DNA of 64,000 nt, from contig CANNFD010000011.1 in NCBI GenBank assembly GCA_947503885.1, positions 9,310 through 73,309 on the forward strand. Direction: 5' to 3'. Position numbers and translations under genes: made by a program. The notes under the pieces are model-generated. The model was not told the origin of the DNA. It searched no databases and saw only the letters and a list, made by a program, of their open reading frames with translations. This DNA is from an uncultured Olleya sp. GTDB taxonomy: Bacteria; Bacteroidota; Bacteroidia; Flavobacteriales; Flavobacteriaceae. Positions 9,801 to 53,085 of the stretch are shown here, in pieces. The stretch's first letter is position 1. Each line of letters starts with the position of its first letter.

Positions 9801-9964
9801 TTATTATAGCTTTTGGCTATTAGCGGTTTGCCTCTAGCACTTAATGTTGTGATTTGTTATTGTATAACTTAAGTACTAAAATACAAATTGTATCCTGTTT
9901 AAAAAAGCTGAAACTATAGTAATTTTATATTTCAAAATATGGTTTTACTATAACGCTAGGTTTT

Positions 9965-10053
9965 GCGTTAGCGATAATAGTAGCATCCTTTTTTTGCTGC
10001 CATATATGGCGAAAAAAGATATAACGGATAGCGCGACCCTTGTGGTAACGCCC
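9965..10053 (-). ncRNA. structured intergenic element resembling the Flavo-1 RNA / Flavobacteriaceae interspersed repeat
   Basis: Minus strand GGGCGTTACCACAAGGGTCGCGCTATCCG...AAAAGGATGCTACTATTATCGCTAACGC; terminal GCGTTA/TAACGC pairing plus an inner hairpin; family assignment is from memory, not a search. Confidence 0.55.
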
Positions 10054-44746: not shown

Positions 44747-47270
44747 ATGGATCGTTTGTTTATTGTTTTTTATAACCAACATTTGCATTAGTCAAACTAC
44801 TACCGATAAAATACCACTAACAGATTATATTAAAACTATTGAAGCAGAATTTGATGTGAAATTCTCCTATGCTGTAGATGATGTTGCTAATATTTTAATT
44901 GATAAACCCACTACTTCATTAAACTTAAAAGAGACCCTTAACTACCTAAACTCTAAAACGTTTTTAAACTTTAAAACTATCGACAACCGTTATATAACGG
45001 TTTCGGTGTTAGAAAAAACAATATCTATTTGTGGTATTGTGCTTTCAGAACACGAACCCCTTTTAGGTGCTTCTGTAATAATATCTGGGACAACAAAAGG
45101 CACAAGTACTAATTACGATGGACAGTTTCAACTAAATAATATTCCGTTAAACACAACCCTTTCAATTTCTTATTTAGGATTTGAAACCCAAACGATTAGC
45201 GCCAAGTATTTTTTTAAGGACGATCAAACTTGCAAACCCTTAACCTTAACAGAAAATAGCGAACAACTTAACGAGGTATTAATCACTAAGTTTCTTACTA
45301 CAGGTTTACAAAAACTAGCTGATGGTAGCATCGTTTTAAACACAGAGCAGTTTGGTATTTTACCGGGACTGATCGAGCCTGACATCCTATTATCTATCCA
45401 AGCACTACCAGGTGTAGAAAGTGTTAATGAAAGTGTTGCAAATATTAATGTTAGAGGTGGTACTAACGACCAAAACCTAATGTTATGGGATGACATAAAA
45501 ATGTACCATTCCGGACACTTTTTTGGACTAATATCGGCTTACAATCCTAATTTAACTAATAAGGTTATTGTTACCAAAAACGGGACCAGCAGCCAATATA
45601 GCGATGGGGTTTCTAGCACCATTAACATGTACACCAAAGACAAAATATCTAATACATTTGCGGGCGGAGTTGGTGTTAATTTAATAAGCGCAGATGCCTT
45701 TTTAGAAGTACCGATTTCTAAAAAATTAGAATTACATATCTCCGGAAGACGCTCTATCACAGATGGGATTTCCACACCTACTTACGAGAATTATTTTGAA
45801 AGAAGTTTTCAGGATAGTGATATCAATACTAATGCTTCAGGCAATAATACAAACACCACATCAGACTTTGTGTTTTATGATTATACTGCAAAGCTACTTT
45901 TTGACTTAAATAAAAATCATAAGTTTAGAGCTAATGTGATTGGTATAAATAACAATTTAGATTATACCGAAAGTGTTTTAAATAACAACAATACAACCAC
46001 CTCAAAAGCAAGTAATTTATCACAAACCAATTTGGGTTATGGTGCTAATTGGAACGCACAATGGACCGACAAGTTTAGCACTACTTTATCCGGAAGCTAC
46101 TCGCAATACAATGTGGATGCTACAGATTTAAAAGTAGAAACCAACCAAGGATTAACACAAGCAAACGAGGTTTTAGAAACAGGCGCACAATTTAAAACTA
46201 AATATAACGTCAATAATAACATGTCCGTTTTAACGGGTTATCAATTTGAAGAAATCGGTATATTAAACCAAACCACTGTTACTGCACCTGCATACGAGCG
46301 TACTAAAAAAGACGTCTTGCTTAATCACGCTGCATTTACAGAAGTAGAATATAATAATAAAAGCACCTATTTTAGACTTGGGGTTAGAGCTAATTATTTT
46401 CAAAAATTTAATCAGCTAATTATTGAGCCTAGAGTAAATATTAGACAAAAGCTATCCCGACAATTGGCTTTAAAACTAGAAGGCGAATTTAAAAATCAGT
46501 CTGTAACACAAATTGTAGATTTTCAGGATGATTTTTTAGGTGTCGAAAACAGACGTTGGATTTTAGCCAATAATACCACAATACCAATATCAACTAGTAA
46601 GCAAGCCTCTTTTGGTGTCGATTTTAAACAAAGCAATTTTAATCTTGACGTTACTGGTTTTTACAAAGTTGTCGATGGGATTACTGCCAGAAACCAAGGG
46701 TTTTATAACAATTTTCAATACCTTAATGCTACAGGAAATTATACCGCAAAAGGCGTCGAGTTTTTAGCCAAAAACACCTCAGAAAAATTAAGTACCTGGT
46801 TAAGTTATGCATATAGTATAAACGAGTACAAATTTGAAACTTTTAACCCTTCTGTTTTTCCTAATAATGTAGATATTAGACACTCTGTCTCCCTAGCATT
46901 TAACTATGCGTTATTTAAAAATTTCCAACTGTCTGTAGGCGGAGTTTGGCATTCTGGACAACCCTATACTAGACCTTTAGAAGGTAACGAAACAGTAGAA
47001 ATTGACGACAACTACTTTGTTAATTATGACCAACCAAACAGTCAAAATGTAGATCCTTTTTTAAGAGTTGACACCTCTATTAGCTACGATATTAACCTGT
47101 CTAACAATTCAAAATTAACTTTTAGAGCTGGTGTTAGAAACCTAACTAACGAAGACAATATCATTAACAAGTATTTTAAAGTTGACCCAGAAGACACCAA
47201 CAAGACCGTTGAGATTAACAATAAGTCTTTAGGATTTACACCAAATGCTAGTTTGCGTGTTAGTTTTTAA
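44733..47270 (+). CDS. TonB-dependent receptor with N-terminal signalling and CarboxypepD_reg-like domains
   Basis: GTSTNYDGQF.L, LPGV...NVRGGTNDQNL plug, terminal LRVSF. Confidence 0.9.
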   Translation: MKRTRWIVCLLFFITNICISQTTTDKIPLTDYIKTIEAEFDVKFSYAVDDVANILIDKPTTSLNLKETLNYLNSKTFLNFKTIDNRYITVSVLEKTISICGIVLSEHEPLLGASVIISGTTKGTSTNYDGQFQLNNIPLNTTLSISYLGFETQTISAKYFFKDDQTCKPLTLTENSEQLNEVLITKFLTTGLQKLADGSIVLNTEQFGILPGLIEPDILLSIQALPGVESVNESVANINVRGGTNDQNLMLWDDIKMYHSGHFFGLISAYNPNLTNKVIVTKNGTSSQYSDGVSSTINMYTKDKISNTFAGGVGVNLISADAFLEVPISKKLELHISGRRSITDGISTPTYENYFERSFQDSDINTNASGNNTNTTSDFVFYDYTAKLLFDLNKNHKFRANVIGINNNLDYTESVLNNNNTTTSKASNLSQTNLGYGANWNAQWTDKFSTTLSGSYSQYNVDATDLKVETNQGLTQANEVLETGAQFKTKYNVNNNMSVLTGYQFEEIGILNQTTVTAPAYERTKKDVLLNHAAFTEVEYNNKSTYFRLGVRANYFQKFNQLIIEPRVNIRQKLSRQLALKLEGEFKNQSVTQIVDFQDDFLGVENRRWILANNTTIPISTSKQASFGVDFKQSNFNLDVTGFYKVVDGITARNQGFYNNFQYLNATGNYTAKGVEFLAKNTSEKLSTWLSYAYSINEYKFETFNPSVFPNNVDIRHSVSLAFNYALFKNFQLSVGGVWHSGQPYTRPLEGNETVEIDDNYFVNYDQPNSQNVDPFLRVDTSISYDINLSNNSKLTFRAGVRNLTNEDNIINKYFKVDPEDTNKTVEINNKSLGFTPNASLRVSF

Positions 47271-47290
47271 TGGACTTCTCTAATTAAAGT

Positions 47291-47380
47291 TACGTCGTTG
47301 TACAAATCTATATTTTTACAAAAACCGACTAACAGAATTGGACAATTGACAAATAAATCAAACGTTTTTTATCAGTGACA
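47291..47380 (+). repeat. degenerate copy R0 of the ~100-bp promoter-like repeat
   Basis: TACGTCGTTGTAC...ACAAAAACCGACTAAC...TTGGACAATTGAC...TTTTTTATCA aligns with 50245-50332. Confidence 0.55.
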
Positions 47381-47534
47381 CAATTAACAAACTAGCCAAT
47401 TACTATTCAATACAAACCATAACTTACACACCTTCAAACACTAAAAGTCATTTTTTTTGTGTCGCAGAGCCCAAAACCTACATACGTGCTAAACAACTAC
47501 TCCTTTTAGGAAGATTATTTAACATAAAGCTAAT

Positions 47535-47600
47535 TTATAGATAGTCTAACAAAAACAAATTAGATTTGTTGAACGATTTGCAAAAAACATGAAACAATTT
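47535..47600 (+). repeat. degenerate copy R1 of the ~100-bp repeat, with a perfect TAGATTTG -7 element at 47561-47568
   Basis: TATAGATAGTCTAACAAAAAC...TTTGTTGAACGATTTGCAAAAAACATGAAAC. Confidence 0.6.
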
Positions 47601-47671
47601 TATATTTTTTAATACATTTGATGCAAATTTTTAAAAAAGAACACAAACAATAATCTATATATTTAATTTTA

Positions 47672-48415
47672 ATGAAAACTTACATTTCCCTTTTTATTTT
47701 TAGCATTTTTACCAATATGATGATAGCCCAAGTAGGAATTGGTACTACAGAGCCAAAAGCCGCATTGGACATTACTTCAGAAGATTCAGGTTTATTAATT
47801 CCTCGTGTTGCACTTAGCGATATAACGGATAGCACCACGGTTAGGACACCATCGGATTCCGATCCTGACGTAGAGGTTAGCACATTGGTTTATAATGATG
47901 GGACCGGAGGCTTACAACCTGCTGGTTTTTATTATTGGGAAGGTAGCAAGTGGATTCAATTTGCATCAACCGAGAAGCAAGTACATGTAGGTAAATTCAA
48001 GATAACAGCTTCTGGGATCACTACTATTGCTGGATTACCATTTAAACCAAAAAGTATCGAGTTTAAAGCATATGCTAATATTGAAGATTACAATTTAAAT
48101 AGCGATAATGGTGTAAATAACAATAACTCAGGATTACAAAACTACTTTGGATACATGCAAGGTTATGCTCAAAACACTTCTGGTACTATTGAGCAGCAAG
48201 TAATAGCAGGTGGTGCAAGTGCCAATTCTGTAAATGACCATTCACGTTACGCTTCGGACACTAATTGTATCGGAGTACGTTATGCAAACCAAAACGGAGA
48301 TTCGTTAGGATTAACAAATGCTTCACTTACCTCTTTTAACGCAGATGGTTTTACATTAAATGTAAGCAATTTTACTGATGGCTTAGTTGTAATTTATACC
48401 GCTTATAAGTATTAA
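47672..48415 (+). CDS. secreted hypothetical protein (Flavobacteriaceae QVGIGT family)
   Basis: Signal peptide, then QVGIGTTEPKAALDITS..SGLLIPRVAL and GFYYWEGSKW. Confidence 0.8.
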   Translation: MKTYISLFIFSIFTNMMIAQVGIGTTEPKAALDITSEDSGLLIPRVALSDITDSTTVRTPSDSDPDVEVSTLVYNDGTGGLQPAGFYYWEGSKWIQFASTEKQVHVGKFKITASGITTIAGLPFKPKSIEFKAYANIEDYNLNSDNGVNNNNSGLQNYFGYMQGYAQNTSGTIEQQVIAGGASANSVNDHSRYASDTNCIGVRYANQNGDSLGLTNASLTSFNADGFTLNVSNFTDGLVVIYTAYKY

Positions 48416-48532
48416 TAATATAAGTAAGCCTAAATTAAAATGTTTTTTTAATAAGCACATCTTAAAATGTAAAACAAAAGCATTATATAATAGTTAGCAT
48501 TATGCTTAAAAATTAATGTTATATAACATAAA

Positions 48533-48592
48533 AACACAAACAAAAAACGCTTTCAAATATCTGAAGGCGTTTTTTAGTATAATAAAGTTTAA
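48533..48592. terminator. copy A of the argS terminator/3' region
   Basis: AACACAAACAAAAAACGCTTTCAAATATCTGAAGGCGTTTTTTAGTATAATAAAGTTTAA, near-identical to 51241-51298. Confidence 0.8.
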
Positions 48593-48895
48593 AACTGAAA
48601 AACGTTTTGTCCAACCACAACTTTTAAAGAATTATCATCTCCGGAAAAAACACCTGCACCTTTCCGGTTAGACAAACTCGTGTAAGAGGGATAGTTTTAC
48701 ACTGTACTTTATCAATTTAGTCATTTAAAAACTAATTGTAATAAGGTAAAAAAGAACCCCTCCCAACCAACTTATGATTAATTCCTAGAGTTAAAATCAA
48801 AAAAAATCAGAAAATATGTATACATTTGATAGAGCTATAATCGATTGAATATCAACAACTAACACTAGCATTAATTGAGATTAAAATAAAATATT

Positions 48896-49261
48896 ATGAA
48901 ACATTTAAAATCCAATTTAATACTGACTTTATTTATTTTTAGCTTTTTGGTTTGTCAATCCTGTAAAAGTGATGATGATTCTCAAGCTCTGGTTGAAATT
49001 TGTAATGACGGAATAGACAATGATGGTGATGGGTTTACAGATTGTGAGGATGCTGACTGTGTTTCAGCCTCAAATTGTGTAATAGAAATTTGTAACGACG
49101 GTATTGACAATGACGGTGATGGGTTTACAGATTGTGATGATGATGATTGTGATTCAGACTCCAACTGTGGTGTTGAAATTTGTAACGACGGTATTGACAA
49201 TGATGGGGATGGATTTACAGATTGTGATGATGATGACTGTACTGCTGATCCAAGTTGTTAA
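48896..49261 (+). CDS. small lipoprotein made of three Cys/Asp-rich putative metal-binding repeats (MopE-like)
   Basis: Lipobox CQSC-KSDDD; 3 x EICNDGIDNDGDGFTDC(E/D)D(A/D)DC. Confidence 0.85.
   Translation: MKHLKSNLILTLFIFSFLVCQSCKSDDDSQALVEICNDGIDNDGDGFTDCEDADCVSASNCVIEICNDGIDNDGDGFTDCDDDDCDSDSNCGVEICNDGIDNDGDGFTDCDDDDCTADPSC
48995..49258 (+). repeat. three tandem 90-nt coding repeats
   Basis: GAAATTTGTAA starts at 48995, 49085 and 49175. Confidence 0.9.
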
Positions 49262-49426
49262 CATAGCCAATACAAAGTTTAAAAACAATTGCTGTTTTTT
49301 ACATATATAATGGCGTATCAAGTTTGCTACGTCTAAATTTTATATATAAAACCCTAGCACACAAACCTACAACGTCACTTTGACTAAAGCTTGTTTTACT
49401 AATAGCCCTTTTTAATATAATATAAT

Positions 49427-49473
49427 AACGCTTTCAAATACTTGAAGGCGTTTTTAGTATAGTAACGTTTTAA
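49427..49473. terminator. copy B of the argS terminator/3' region
   Basis: AACGCTTTCAAATACTTGAAGGCGTTTTTAGTATAGTAACGTTTTAA. Confidence 0.78.
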
Positions 49474-49519
49474 TCTTAAAATGTTTTATTCTGCTACAAC
49501 TATCTACTAGGTTGTGTAA

Positions 49520-49620
49520 AAAAATTTACGTAGTTCTACGTATAGTTTATCTAACATTAAACAACTAATTTCGTTGACCGATTGATAAAAACATTGAAAC
49601 GATTTTTTATCATCGAAATA
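49520..49620 (+). repeat. copy R2 of the ~100-bp promoter-like repeat
   Basis: TACGTAGTTCTAC...TAATTTCGTTGACCGATTGATAAAAACATTGAA...TTTTTTATCATCGAAATA. Confidence 0.85.
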
Positions 49621-49659
49621 ATTACTCGGTAAATTATAAATTGAAATAAAATATAAAAT

Positions 49660-49869
49660 ATGACATTGTTAATAGTAGTAATAGTAGTTGGATTGATTTG
49701 GTATGGAATAAAAATTGGATTTAATATTGGTTGTATAATCGGAGGAATCATTGGAGTATTTATTGGAGGGAGTTTGGGTGTAGCTGGTGGAGGCGGAGCA
49801 TCAAACGGGTGGATTATTTTCGGCGCTATCGGATTTGTTGTTGGGGGATTAATTGCAAATAAAAATTAA
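49660..49869 (+). CDS. small glycine-rich membrane protein
   Basis: 69 aa, hydrophobic GxxxG-rich helices, ATG after an A/T-rich leader. Confidence 0.65.
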   Translation: MTLLIVVIVVGLIWYGIKIGFNIGCIIGGIIGVFIGGSLGVAGGGGASNGWIIFGAIGFVVGGLIANKN

Positions 49870-50044
49870 TATAAAAAATATTATAGGAATAGTAATTCAA
49901 TTTGGATTAGCGAATTATAAAAGAAGTTCAGAGGAATTATTTGAAAATGGCTCAGAATTTATGACAAATCCTACTGTTATAGGAGTTTTGACTCTTTTGA
50001 GTTGGGTTATAATGGTAATCGGAATCGTAAGTTTTTTCTATTAA
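49853..50044 (+). pseudogene. probable fragment of a membrane-protein gene
   Basis: 63 aa, overlaps the upstream gene by 17 nt with a poor N-terminus; hydrophobic C-terminal helix; followed by stop-riddled sequence. Confidence 0.4.
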
Positions 50045-50124
50045 TAAATATTTATGAGTTAACTCGGAATTGAACAATTAAAGCGGAAGAATTAAAACTT
50101 GTTCATTCAGATGTCTCGTAACAG

Positions 50125-50196
50125 TTTGTAACAAAATTTATATAATTTATTGCTAGTTCTATCCTATTTACAAAAGTCCTCGCAGATTTACTATTT
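50125..50196 (+). mobile_element. decayed left half of an attC-like Flavobacteriaceae cassette repeat
   Basis: TTTGTAACAAAATTTATATAATTTATTGCTAGTTCTATCCTATTTACAAAAGTCCTCGCAGATTT; resembles a repeat family I recall from Flavobacteriaceae; right arm absent. Confidence 0.45.
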
Positions 50197-50239
50197 AACC
50201 ACTTTACATATTTACATCTTTAAAAAGGGTATTTATAAC

Positions 50240-50340
50240 AAATCTACGTAGTTGTACTTATAGATTTCTTAACAAAAATCTACTAACTTCGTTGAACGAT
50301 TGATAAAAAACATTGAAGCTTTTTTTTTATCATCGAAATA
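50240..50340 (+). repeat. copy R3 of the ~100-bp promoter-like repeat
   Basis: TACGTAGTTGTAC...TAACTTCGTTGAACGATTGATAAAAAACATTGAA...TTTTTTATCATCGAAATA. Confidence 0.85.
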
Positions 50341-50381
50341 TTGGCAATAATTAAAAAACAAAATAAAACTGCACATTAAAA

Positions 50382-50735
50382 ATGACAAATGACTATCAAG
50401 ATTACAAAATACTTTTAAACAACTACACTTCTTCTTACATTAGTGAATATGGAACAAAAAGTGCTAAAAAGACCATAGAAACAATTCAAAAATCAAAACA
50501 CTCGATTAACTTATTGCATCAAAGCGCAACAAAAGGTTTTGTGCCAACTGTCGGTGATTTTAATTCTTTTGTCCTTAGTAATTTATCGTTGAGCTTTGCA
50601 AAAAAAGCAAAAATTAGATTTGCTTCAATAATCTTATTTAATCATTGGCATAATGATGTTAATGTTGAATTACAACTTTTATCAGAATATGAAGTTATTT
50701 CTTTGTTTAACAAAATCCTTGAAAAAACAATATAA
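50382..50735 (+). CDS. hypothetical protein (cassette ORF 1)
   Basis: 117 aa, ATG after an A-rich leader, no recognisable motif. Confidence 0.7.
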   Translation: MTNDYQDYKILLNNYTSSYISEYGTKSAKKTIETIQKSKHSINLLHQSATKGFVPTVGDFNSFVLSNLSLSFAKKAKIRFASIILFNHWHNDVNVELQLLSEYEVISLFNKILEKTI

Positions 50736-50799
50736 AATTATTTAAAAATAGCCTACTATTTAAAATCAGTAGATTAACTCAAATACTTAGAAAATAATT

Positions 50800-51051
50800 A
50801 TGGATATAAATGAATTGAAAACAGGAATTATCGATGGAATGTCAAAAATTGTAGTTGATGATTTCAGTAAAAGTGAATATAAAGGAACACCTCTTGAAAG
50901 TATGGCTATCATTGAATCATTAAATTACTCATCAAAATGGTACACAAATTGGCTATTGGAAAATAAAATTGATTTTAAGATTTCTGAGGAACAAATTGAT
51001 GATATAATAAAAGATTGTTATACAAAGACGTATGATAAATTTTTAGAATAA
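50800..51051 (+). CDS. hypothetical acidic protein (cassette ORF 2)
   Basis: 83 aa, no recognisable motif. Confidence 0.7.
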   Translation: MDINELKTGIIDGMSKIVVDDFSKSEYKGTPLESMAIIESLNYSSKWYTNWLLENKIDFKISEEQIDDIIKDCYTKTYDKFLE

Positions 51052-51087
51052 TTATATAGTTCTACAGTAATGGTAACCGTATAAAAC

Positions 51088-51216
51088 TATTGCCAACAAC
51101 GTATATAAAAAATAGCGATTTTAGTGCTTAAACGAAAGATAAATAATAAAATAAAGGTCTGTAATAAACCGAAAAGTTAGTGTTTAAAATCCGCTACTTT
51201 TCATATACCAGACCTT
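51088..51216 (+). mobile_element. attC-like imperfect inverted repeat
   Basis: Arms 51101-51123 and 51185-51208: two A/C mismatches (G:T on the bottom strand) and one extrahelical base; GCCAAC at the left end. Confidence 0.65.
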
Positions 51217-51240
51217 TCAACGAAAAGTCAAAATCTATCT

Positions 51241-51298
51241 AACACAAAAAAAAACGCTTTCAATAACTTGAAAGCGTTTTTAGTATAATAAAGTTTAA
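51241..51298. terminator. argS terminator (copy C, native position)
   Basis: AAAACGCTTTCAA-TAAC-TTGAAAGCGTTTT, 2 nt from the argS stop codon. Confidence 0.85.
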
Positions 51299-51300
51299 GC

Positions 51301-53085
51301 TTACATACGTTCTGGCACTGCCACACCTAATAAGCTAAAGGCATTTTTTATTGTTGTTGCTACTGCTTTAGACAGTTGTACCCTAAACACAATTTCGTTT
51401 TGCGTGTCTGCGCCAAGTATAGATACGTTTTGGTAAAAACTATTAAAGGCTTTTACTAGGTCGTAGGTATAATTAGCAATTAACGCTGGACTGTGGTTAT
51501 TGGCTGCTTGTTGTATTACTTCTGGAAACAGTTGTAATTGTTTTATTAGCTCGCGCTCCTTATCATCCAAAGCCACTTGATCTGCGCTTAAAGTTATTGC
51601 AGGGTCTATATTAGCTTTGCGTAATATGGATTGGATTCTGGCATAGGTATACTGTATAAAAGGTCCTGTATTACCCTGAAAATCGATAGAGTCTTTTGGA
51701 TCAAATAAGATTCGTTTTTTAGGGTCTACTTTTAAAATATAATATTTTAAAGCGCCTAAACCTATGGTTTGATATAAGTCTTGCTTTTCTTGGTCTGTGT
51801 AACCGTCCAGTTTACCAAGCTCTTCAGATATGGTTTGTGCTGTGTCTGCCATTTCTACAATTAAATCGTCAGCATCTACAACAGTCCCTTCTCTACTTTT
51901 CATTTTTCCGGAAGGTAAATCTACCATCCCATAACTTAAATGAAACAGGTTTTTTGCCCAATCAAAGCCTAGTTTTTTAATAATTAAAAACAAGACCTGA
52001 AAATGGTATTCTTGCTCGTTACCAACCGTATAAACCATACCACCAACATCTGGATAATCTTTTACACGTTGGATTGCTGTACCAATATCTTGGGTCATGT
52101 ACACTGCTGTACCGTCAGATCGTAGGACAATTTTCTCGTCCAAACCATCTTCGGTCAAATCGCACCATACCGAGCCATCTTCTTTTTTAAAGAACACGCC
52201 AGATTTTAAACCTTCGGCAACAAACTCTTTACCTAAAAGGTAAGTTTGACTTTCATAATATAAATTATCAAAATCTACACCTAGGCTTTTATAGGTTTGG
52301 TCAAACCCTTTATACACCCAACCGTTCATGGTTTGCCAAAGTGCAACAACGTCCTTATCTCCTGCTTCCCATTGTTGTAACATTTGTTGTGCTGCAACCA
52401 AAATTGGTGCTTCTTTTTTAGCGTCGTCTTCGGTTTTACCCTCAGCCATTAAAGCTGCTATTTCCTTTTTGTATTCTTGGTCAAATTTAACGTAGTAATT
52501 ACCTACTAATTTATCTCCTTTTAATCCTGTAGATTCCGGAGTTTCGTTATTGCCAAAACGTTGCCAAGCTAACATACTTTTACAAATATGAATCCCTCGG
52601 TCGTTAATAATCTGTGTTTTATATACTTTTTTACCTGACGCCTTTAATATTTCGGCAACGCTATACCCTAATAAATTATTACGGATATGCCCAAGGTGTA
52701 ATGGTTTGTTGGTGTTAGGCGAAGAATACTCCACCATAATGGCTTTATTTTCCGCTTTAGCGTCCACAAAACCAAATTTTTCTTCGGCTTTAATACTATT
52801 AAAATAGTTTACAAAATAAGAGGCTTCAATCTCAAGATTTAAAAACCCTTTAACCACGTTAAACGCTTTTACCTCTGTAACATTGGCTACTAAATAATCC
52901 CCAATAGCTTCACCAATTTGCATTGGATTACCTTTAACAACCCGTAACATTGGAAAAACTACTACAGTAATATCTCCAGCAAATTCTTTACGAGTAGCTT
53001 GGAATTCTACAGTTTCTAAATCTGCACTGTAAATTGAATTTACAGCTTGTTTCACGAATTTTTCTAAGGTGTTTTGAAGACTCAT
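51301..53085 (-). CDS. argS: arginine--tRNA ligase
   Basis: EYSSPNTNKPLHLGHIRN (HIGH), GKMKSREG, YIQYTYARI; TATATTTG promoter at 53107-53114. Confidence 0.97.
   Translation of the reverse strand: MSLQNTLEKFVKQAVNSIYSADLETVEFQATRKEFAGDITVVVFPMLRVVKGNPMQIGEAIGDYLVANVTEVKAFNVVKGFLNLEIEASYFVNYFNSIKAEEKFGFVDAKAENKAIMVEYSSPNTNKPLHLGHIRNNLLGYSVAEILKASGKKVYKTQIINDRGIHICKSMLAWQRFGNNETPESTGLKGDKLVGNYYVKFDQEYKKEIAALMAEGKTEDDAKKEAPILVAAQQMLQQWEAGDKDVVALWQTMNGWVYKGFDQTYKSLGVDFDNLYYESQTYLLGKEFVAEGLKSGVFFKKEDGSVWCDLTEDGLDEKIVLRSDGTAVYMTQDIGTAIQRVKDYPDVGGMVYTVGNEQEYHFQVLFLIIKKLGFDWAKNLFHLSYGMVDLPSGKMKSREGTVVDADDLIVEMADTAQTISEELGKLDGYTDQEKQDLYQTIGLGALKYYILKVDPKKRILFDPKDSIDFQGNTGPFIQYTYARIQSILRKANIDPAITLSADQVALDDKERELIKQLQLFPEVIQQAANNHSPALIANYTYDLVKAFNSFYQNVSILGADTQNEIVFRVQLSKAVATTIKNAFSLLGVAVPERM

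Follow-up and report, generated by a model that had tools for sequence, protein, structure and literature searches.

The subject of this report is a gene cassette at 50341-51215 of a 64,000-nucleotide (nt) stretch of DNA, hereafter the window, from an uncultured Olleya sp. of the Flavobacteriaceae (GenBank assembly GCA_947503885.1, contig CANNFD010000011.1, positions 9,310-73,309, forward strand). With a probability that we put at roughly 0.85, the cassette is a promoterless two-gene unit of an integron-like gene-capture system that is spread across the Flavobacteriaceae. It ends in a hairpin of the attC type, which has many relatives in the same genome, and it appears to have been inserted into a second kind of folded site, a dispersed hairpin termed here the socket. 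Contigs of the genome from which the window comes (G000; 43 contigs, 3.04 Mb) are coded C, genomes of relatives G and their loci L, and a slash marks a junction or crossover. The parts of the cassette, comprising two open reading frames (ORFs) of 117 and 83 amino acids (aa), are given below.

50341-51215, plus strand: gene cassette, with start TTGGCAATA, two ORFs, an attC-like site and final base 51215
50382-50735, plus strand: cassette ORF 1, 117 aa, all-helical, no family match
50800-51051, plus strand: cassette ORF 2, 83 aa, no family match
51088-51215, plus strand: attC-like site of the cassette, matched by covariance model R1 with 56.4 bits and an expect value (E) of 1.9e-11, at full length over 51088-51224
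Left side of the attC-like site: box TATTGCCAAC, AAC at 51095-51097, spacer aac, GTATAT at 51101-51106, TAGC at 51113-51116, then the variable centre
Right side of the attC-like site: GCTAC at 51193-51197, ATATAC at 51203-51208, spacer cagacc at 51209-51214, and T at 51215 in place of the family's G

The attC-like site and its family

A pattern search of the genome returned 28 sites of 121-128 base pairs (bp) on contigs C1, C6, C8, C13, C19, C22 and C23, lying in co-directional arrays. At C1:492-506 kb, for example, about 12 unrelated ORFs on one strand have a family element in every gap, and a search of the genome with the window region gave partial copies concentrated at contig ends. The layout of the family is xxxxxxxAAC, 3 nt, GTRTAT ... 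ATAYAC, 6 nt, GTTxxxxxxx, in which AAC and GTT were invariant across the 28 aligned sites. The hairpin of the window is a member of this family: R1, the covariance model that matched it, was built from the 28 other sites with the window site left out, and its length from AAC to the triplet, 123 bp, falls within the family range. Its right end reads CATATACCAGACC (51202-51214), followed by TTTC. Rfam gave no family for the hairpin or for the socket, either with the whole window at the gathering score or with 48300-51400 at E up to 5.

The pairing of the sites is conserved while their sequence changes. Compensatory changes were found at 8 of the 14 pairs of the inner helix (GTGTAT/ATACAC, GTATAT/ATATAC and GGCTAT/ATAGCC; ATTGC/GCAAC, ATGGC/GCCAC and ATAGC/GCTAC), and about 93-94% of cells paired, against at most 41% when the partners were slid. 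The bottom strand was predicted in silico to fold more stably than the top strand in all 29 sites, by about 3 kcal/mol on average, and it may be the folded, single bottom strand that recombines. Positions that repeatedly fail to pair, in sockets and attC-like sites alike (A2 columns 55/74; A1 columns 20/124 and 25/118), place A against C on the top strand and give a G:T wobble on the bottom strand, which fits this folding bias.

The arrays also obey a rule linking each cassette start to the box at its end. The seven variable bases after GTT matched the reverse complement of the next downstream AAC-side box at a mean of 5.48 of 7 positions, while shuffled pairings gave a mean of 2.78 and a maximum of 4.0; such complementarity is a signature of integron cassettes. 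The variable start bases of the window cassette match the reverse complement of its own AAC-side box at 7/7 positions. The first, sequence-only reading of this DNA had remarked that TTGGCAATA (50341-50349) is the exact reverse complement of TATTGCCAA (51088-51096), and this was confirmed. Apart from base 1, the cassette begins with the reverse complement of its box TATTGCCAAC: the junction in the window is A/TTGGCAATA, and the reverse complement of the box is GTTGGCAATA.

Copies of the cassette in other contexts

The ORF pair was searched for in 300 other genera of the family, and one genome alone carried it (G107, from another genus). The two ORFs there are 91% and 84% identical at the aa level, and the nt identity is 85%, with similarity running from exactly 50341 to 51124. 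The junction is ...tttacG/TTGGCAATAATTG, a boundary of the form G/TTGGCAATAA, and the context is unrelated, with a RelA_SpoT-domain gene upstream. The right half of the site is broken in this copy, as in the window. Marine metagenome contigs L104-L106 carry the pair with 86% nt identity, similar from 50341 to 51141, behind the junction ...gaccgttG/TTGGCAATAATTT. In this case the pair sits within a true array, flanked by attC-like sites of 90 and 84 bits, and the next cassette encodes an OLD-TOPRIM ATPase and a UvrD helicase and is Gabija-like. The junction before the ORF pair at L104:2959-2972 reads ...gaccGTTGTTGGCAATAA and has an extra GTT preceding the G/TT that fits the cassette's own box, possibly the mark of a slipped or repeated crossover.

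The left boundary at 50341 is thus confirmed by independent copies, and recurrence of the same ORF pair with the same boundary was what the sequence-only reading had proposed to look for. Its proposal of integron-style boundaries gains support from the R1 match, the 7/7 complementarity and the copies that begin at 50341, its proposed comparative checks came out in its favour, and on these comparisons both boundaries are in place. It had drawn the unit as 50341-51216; the start holds, and the end is corrected to 51215, as 51216-51224 belongs to the target.

The socket

The sequence on either side of the cassette resolves into one interrupted site and its surroundings.

50237-50287, plus strand: upstream part of docking module B, with the near-palindrome TACGTAGTTGTAC (50245-50257) and the start of a -7-like box TAACTTCG (50284-50291)
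50288-50340, plus strand: left part of socket B, comprising box TTCGTTGAAC (50288-50297), gat, stem arm TGATAAAAAA (50301-50310), the loop, stem arm TTTTTTATCA (50323-50332), tcgaaat, and A at 50340, base 1 of the right-hand triplet
51216-51224, plus strand: split right half-box of the socket, TTCAACGAA, the reverse complement of 50288-50296
51250-51281, no strand assigned: bidirectional terminator hairpin with a 14-bp stem and a T run, common to the socket and argS

The 9-mer TTCGTTGAA at 50288-50296 and its counterpart TTCAACGAA at 51216-51224 are the sole two copies of that 9-mer in the 64 kb. These reciprocal 9-mers, one at each junction, indicate that the right box of the socket was split by the cassette, and there is no duplication at the cassette junctions.

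Within about 60 nt the socket repeats the plan of the attC-like sites (AAC, 3 nt, stem, loop, stem, 5-7 nt, then ATT or GTT). Its stem covaries across genera: 7 of 10 pairs are changed on both sides, and 90.8% of stem cells pair, a share that drops to 73% in shuffles and to no more than 59% after sliding. The window holds another copy of the ~100 bp that precede 50341, at 49517-49620 (module A), the same genome has one more (C1:434888-434975), and many relatives carry it too; the upstream part of module B shows about 80% identity both with module A and with modules in G005, G006, G010 and G002, and the similarity of the other copies stops at 50339/50340. The module was found in 30 of the 151 genera sampled, at 80-94% identity that extends over the upstream TTGA and TAACTTCG boxes and the loop. 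A loose regular expression (regex) for the socket had 370 matches in the genome of the window, mostly spurious, and BLAST found only three good copies.

In 30 of 32 aligned modules, drawn from many genera, TAACTTCG is preceded at a distance of about 20 nt by a TTGA box. Bacteroidota promoters take the form TTG...TAnnTTTG, and the spacing of the socket boxes fits this consensus, which suggests that the boxes may function as a promoter. The two socket copies in the window have TAG, not TTG, behind a TACGTAG..CTACGTA palindrome. Like the socket in the window, other sockets also end in a terminator. The partner site of the cassette is a structured hairpin with promoter-like boxes and not plain flanking sequence. 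A riboswitch or leader RNA was considered for the socket and dropped. As a separate observation, the palindrome TACGTAG-TT-CTACGTA (window 49527-49542 and 50245-50257; L032, L033, L030 and L034) immediately precedes the argS-proximal sockets of five Olleya species, and other sockets have TTGACTTTGTCAA in its place; it may be the operator of a regulator.

Empty and occupied sockets and the crossover point

Uninterrupted sockets occur in the same genome at C1:434914, reading ...gagaaATTAAACGAA, the complement of its box TTCGTTTAAC, and in Olleya sp. R77988, about 1.4 kb from the 3' end of argS. The stem of the latter is wholly different yet complementary (GAATATGATTC/GAATCATATTC). Five further sockets are occupied, three in G009 and one each in G008 and G002 (L038, L039, L040, L042 and L043). 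Each shows the same order: the socket, A/TT with a cassette of one or two ORFs, a full-length site of 85-141 bits, G/TTAAACGAA and the terminator, TTAAACGAA being the reverse complement of the socket box TTCGTTTAAC. One of these sockets is orthologous between G009 and G008; its flanks are 91% identical up to the junction, where the similarity breaks, and the cargo is unrelated (269 aa and 287 aa).

The socket triplet is natively ATT in the genus Olleya, and the triplet of the attC-like sites is GTT. All five occupied sockets retain A at the left junction and G at the right junction. The first base of the triplet thus remains with the left partner, and the point of exchange lies between it and the first variable base. 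Judged from these natural hybrids, the crossover is placed after base 1 of the triplet, compatible with the classical G/TT cut.

For the window, the restored form of the socket is predicted to be CATCGAAATATTCAACGAAAAG, and the empty site would read CATCGAAAT-A-TTCAACGAAAAG. The empty site written down in the sequence-only reading had one T too many, the correct form being CATCGAAAT-A-TTCAACGAA. A looser gapped pattern for the empty site gave mostly chance matches in unrelated phyla, together with Olleya sp. R77988; uninterrupted homologues of the target do exist (C1:434914 and R77988), whereas the exact allele was not recovered, as set out below.

The recombinase

The best IntI-like gene of the genome is the following.

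C6:246641-247831: recombinase, 396 aa

Two cassettes with strong sites follow it directly and in the same direction, and the junction downstream of it reads ...CATATAACta/GTTATATGCA. The protein scored 221 bits with the XerA-type family NF040815 (cut-off 220) and 203 bits, in two stretches, with TIGR02249 (cut-off 265), and its closest structures were Protein Data Bank (PDB) entries 4a8e and 5hxy (E about 4e-41). It has an N-terminal extension of about 100 aa. IntI proteins have an extra domain, placed between patches II and III, that makes contact with the flipped-out bases of attC; in the alignment with VchIntIA (2A3V), 16 residues of the recombinase (query 279-296) replace residues 183-243, the IntI-specific insert (~43 residues).

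Among the 61 genera sampled, 59 carried the attC-like family (at least five matches in 47 of them) and 51 a homologue of the recombinase, which in many cases immediately precedes co-oriented sites or lies at a contig end. A core of the form (t)ATAtTT...[CG]ATATAAC-nn-G/TT was found about 35-110 nt past the integrase stop codon in 13 genera (C6:247832-247885 of G000 compared with loci L048-L065), and this integrase-proximal site is unlike the socket hairpin. Integrase and arrays are thus linked across genera. Four genomes (G014, G050, G051 and G058) had 13-40 attC-like matches and no integrase homologue at E <= 1e-40.

The kinship of the recombinase with XerA/XerC-like proteins, its want of the IntI insert and the short ATATAAC-nn-GTT core beside its gene in 13 genera are what would be expected if the host XerC/XerD or the Xer-like enzyme acted on short double-stranded dif-like cores and the long hairpins were incidental. 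We consider this improbable by a wide measure, since the sites are 121-128 nt long with pairing kept by compensatory changes, differ between strands in 29/29 cases and have AAC and GTT as their only invariant outer elements. The pdif modules, known from Acinetobacter plasmids, and integrative mobile elements exploiting Xer (IMEX) are alike in combining an Xer-like tyrosine recombinase with small gene modules between recombination sites; they differ in that no 28-bp dif-like core (11-6-11) is visible here, and in that the present sites are long, covarying hairpins in direct orientation, unlike the alternating inverted pdif modules.

Proposed mechanism

One explanation of these data, which we hold at somewhat better than even odds, is that this is a complete integron-type system of the Flavobacteriaceae whose recombinase does without the domain regarded as indispensable for attC recognition, and in which the promoter-equipped sockets, scattered over the chromosome in addition to the arrays, would be expression slots, served in trans, for the swapping of cassettes; the slot in the window would have been filled and then locked. 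In the mechanism that goes with the cassette reading given at the outset, which we hold more firmly, a cassette circle would recombine through its ~124-nt folded attC-like site with a second folded site, the exchange falling between bases 1 and 2 of the triplet (G/TT in attC-like sites), and the likely enzyme would be the Xer-sized tyrosine recombinase of C6. The partner in this instance would be the dispersed, conserved ~60-nt hairpin socket and not the integrase-proximal site. With promoter-like boxes upstream of the socket and a terminator downstream, a cassette plugged into it would be transcribed. Insertion split the right box of the socket, so that A was left before the cassette (50340) and TTCAACGAA came to lie behind it. 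The T at 51215 would have arisen later by a G-to-T change in the crossover triplet, perhaps immobilising the cassette.

Observations that weigh against this explanation

A number of points count against the cassette reading or parts of it. The 9-mer pair of the cassette is by itself within chance (three matches in the window, with 1.25 expected and 12 of 100 shuffles reaching three), the plain fold of 51050-51260 was no better than shuffles (z = -1.1), and the AT-rich 1.5 kb around the cassette holds 55 inverted pairs. The significance of the hairpin lies in its position and the family match, not in the 9-mer pair or the plain fold, and its structure emerges only through the family alignment. 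From the same three observations it could be argued that these are chance inverted repeats round an ordinary hairpin, such as a repetitive extragenic palindromic (REP)-like repeat, a miniature inverted-repeat transposable element (MITE) or a terminator, with no cassette mobility. That view is hardly credible, and in our opinion already refuted, given the match to the family model at full length, the onset of similarity at exactly 50341 in three contexts, the reciprocal 9-mer of the socket at the other junction and the same hybrid junctions in five other sockets. A MITE or REP repeat was also rejected as a candidate in its own right, as the outer box complements the start of the upstream gene unit and not its own other end, there is no duplication and the target box is split.

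The right boundary of the cassette is less well supported than the left. The evidence for it is the family model and the split box, with no second copy, and the right half of the site in the window and in G107 differs from that of the L104 copy. The base next to it is also not predicted by the junction model, which expects G at 51215 where the window has T. GTT stands in all 27 other sites of the genome that conform to the regex and whose L box is perfectly complementary; five sites lack it, and that of the window is the one clear family member among them. Most simply, the T is a later G-to-T substitution, itself unobserved, and this change may have fixed or immobilised the cassette, which would then have lost its mobility. 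It had been noted at the outset that the expected G was absent from both junctions, and this caveat is largely resolved: the A at 50340 is explained by the native ATT of the target, and the right-hand T is still anomalous.

The exact empty allele ATCATCGAAATNTTCAACGAAAA had no match in metagenome or genome contigs. The integrase lies on a contig other than that of the cassette, and the C6 enzyme would be assigned as the acting recombinase from linkage in other genera only. Ten of the 61 genomes have sites and no close integrase homologue; these could hold orphan arrays, depend on a more divergent enzyme or reflect assembly gaps. The sockets of the window lack the TTGA box, and their promoter may be weak or regulated. 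The basis for movement is comparative sequence throughout.

The interval between the TonB-dependent receptor gene and argS

The cassette lies in a ~4-kb interval between a TonB-dependent receptor gene (end 47270) and argS (51301-53085, minus strand) that is a hot spot. Comparison of window 47270-51301 with loci L029-L037 showed a gap of 12 bp in G008 and of 1.7-9.3 kb in five other Olleya species, the longest being in G005. G006 carries, about 1 kb downstream of its receptor gene, a 63-nt duplicate of the 3' end of that gene (L033:3406-3468). No attC-like sites were found by nhmmer in the argS-adjacent regions of relatives, and the hot spot is therefore not generally a cassette array. The interval in the window contains four tandem socket copies in varied states of decay, and older material precedes the cassette.

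49517-49620, plus strand: docking module A, a second socket in decay with GACC at the end of its box; identity to module B ~80%, with similarity ending at ...CGAAAT
50140-50211, plus strand: left-half remnant of an older attC-like site, with AAC at 50130-50132, after ORFs at 49660-50044 (R1 26.5 bits, E 3e-4)

The remnant spans R1 model positions 16-120 with the centre missing, and was also found by nhmmer (50139-50193, E 6.6e-8). The 121-aa product of ORF 48896-49261 has three acidic double-disulfide repeats (NF033662, 96 bits), and the ORF is followed directly by a weak attC-like match (49262-49399, 17.4 bits, E 0.046) and then by a terminator copy; this ORF and the weak site are probably an older, decayed cassette. 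The terminator module, AAAAACGCTTTCAA...TTGAAAGCGTTTTT, has copies at 48533-48592, 49424-49470 and 51241-51298 that are 83-88% identical, the last of which also serves argS. The module is missing at the argS of G008, G009 and G002, and so seems to belong to the inserted material and not to argS.

These remains raise an alternative, that the locus is the tail of a decayed cassette array, of the kind termed a cluster of attC sites lacking integrases (CALIN), and that the socket is the short attC-like site of an upstream cassette that was lost or was ORF-less and promoter-bearing. The remnant at 50140-50211, 130 bp upstream, the weak site after ORF 48896-49261 and the four tandem module copies between the receptor gene and argS would all suit it, as would the box-stem-box layout that the socket shares with attC-like sites, one copy of which (in G002) scored 18.6 bits with R1. 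We nevertheless think it unlikely, because the module is 80-94% identical in 30/151 genera, TTGA and TAACTTCG boxes and loop included, and because it occurs singly between the terminators of unrelated convergent genes, also in uninterrupted form. This alternative overlaps with insertion into a socket, the explanation that we prefer, and the junction mechanism would be identical in both.

Elsewhere in the window there is a Flavo-1 RNA, unrelated to the cassette.

9960-10042, plus strand: Flavo-1 RNA (Rfam RF01705), 53 bits (gathering score 42)

The cargo

Neither cassette ORF had a match in Pfam, NCBIfam or PADLOC. ORF 1 has 14 homologues in marine metagenomes, 57-96% identical. Its AlphaFold model is all-helical with a predicted local distance difference test (pLDDT) score of 85; a fold search of the PDB gave nothing below E 0.9, and the only structural match of the model was a crAss-like virus protein (E 2.7e-4, template modelling score 0.74). 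The single-sequence model of ORF 2 was poor (pLDDT 62), and ORF 2 accompanies ORF 1 both in G107 and in L104-L106. More distant homologues of the 117-aa protein lie in prophage-like regions without cassette ends. On metagenome contigs L107, L108 and L109, homologues of the 117-aa protein have a divergent gene for an XRE-family repressor next to them and, after them, either AAA_24 and DUF3871 genes or a phage-type integrase. The cargo looks phage-derived, and the ORF pair may have been recruited from the early region of a prophage.

Comparison with known systems

The system resembles integrons in its co-directional arrays of unrelated, mostly single-gene cassettes with a recombinase gene at the array head, and in its imperfect hairpins, in which an unpaired spacer, an inner stem and a variable centre lie within outer AAC...GTT boxes. 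Further likenesses are that the start of a cassette complements the AAC-side box at its own end, that the crossover comes after the first base of GTT and that the bottom strand is predicted to fold better. In classical integrons it is the folded bottom strand that recombines, and extrahelical bases determine which strand is used. It differs in that the Flavobacteriaceae recombinase is without the ~43-residue IntI insert, scores below the TIGR02249 cut-off and has the ~100-aa N-terminal extension. The sites are also a uniform 121-128 nt with much shared sequence, and they carry conserved top-strand A/C mismatches where classical sites carry bulged bases.

In a classical integron, intI stands next to attI and the Pc promoter and is usually divergent from the cassettes. 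Here the attC structure is present (28 sites; the triplet in the window is TTT) and so is the G/TT crossover, whereas the integrase is not of the IntI clade and is co-directional with the cassettes. Co-directionality alone would not exclude membership, as sedentary chromosomal integrons with a co-oriented integrase are known in the 'inverted' group, of the Treponema denticola type. The system is an integron by its mode of working, and a variant rather than a member because the associated integrase is without the IntI-specific insert.

The socket can be likened to two known kinds of site. As with attI/Pc and with promoter-bearing, ORF-less cassettes, it is a platform that receives cassettes and is placed to drive their transcription; it differs in being unlinked to the integrase gene, in having several copies per genome and in its attC-like fold, and the integrase-proximal core is a separate site. 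Insertion of cassettes at genomic attG sites has been described by Loot et al. (2024, Nat Microbiol 9:228). As that work is relayed in PMC12901181, it shares with the present case a lone cassette outside arrays and far from the integrase, a shared crossover triplet and the need of a nearby promoter for expression. In the same account attG is minimal, whereas the site here is a hairpin, conserved and covarying, that brings an AAC box, promoter-like boxes and a terminator of its own, is present in 30/151 genera and has orthologous copies that hold different cassettes.

Significance

Integrons are the textbook means for bacteria to acquire foreign genes and express them. No description of the present gene-capture system was found in the literature searched. 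The survey made with IntegronFinder 2.0 listed only In0 elements and one complete integron for Bacteroidetes (PMC9024848), and a paper on the Chryseobacterium resistome placed XerD beside catB, tetX and aadS with no cassette model (PMC11194056). Set against the near-absence of integrons from Bacteroidota in surveys, this locus is a clear single-cassette case of a system that is seemingly pervasive in marine Flavobacteriaceae (59/61 genera). Should the insert-less recombinase be the enzyme at work, the same machinery may move the resistance genes of Chryseobacterium and its relatives.

The natural hybrid junctions fix the crossover point without experiment, and the locus reveals a second kind of landing site, the dispersed promoter-plus-hairpin socket. 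On the same condition, the part ascribed to the extra domain of IntI would have to be reconsidered, and detection tools would need new models.

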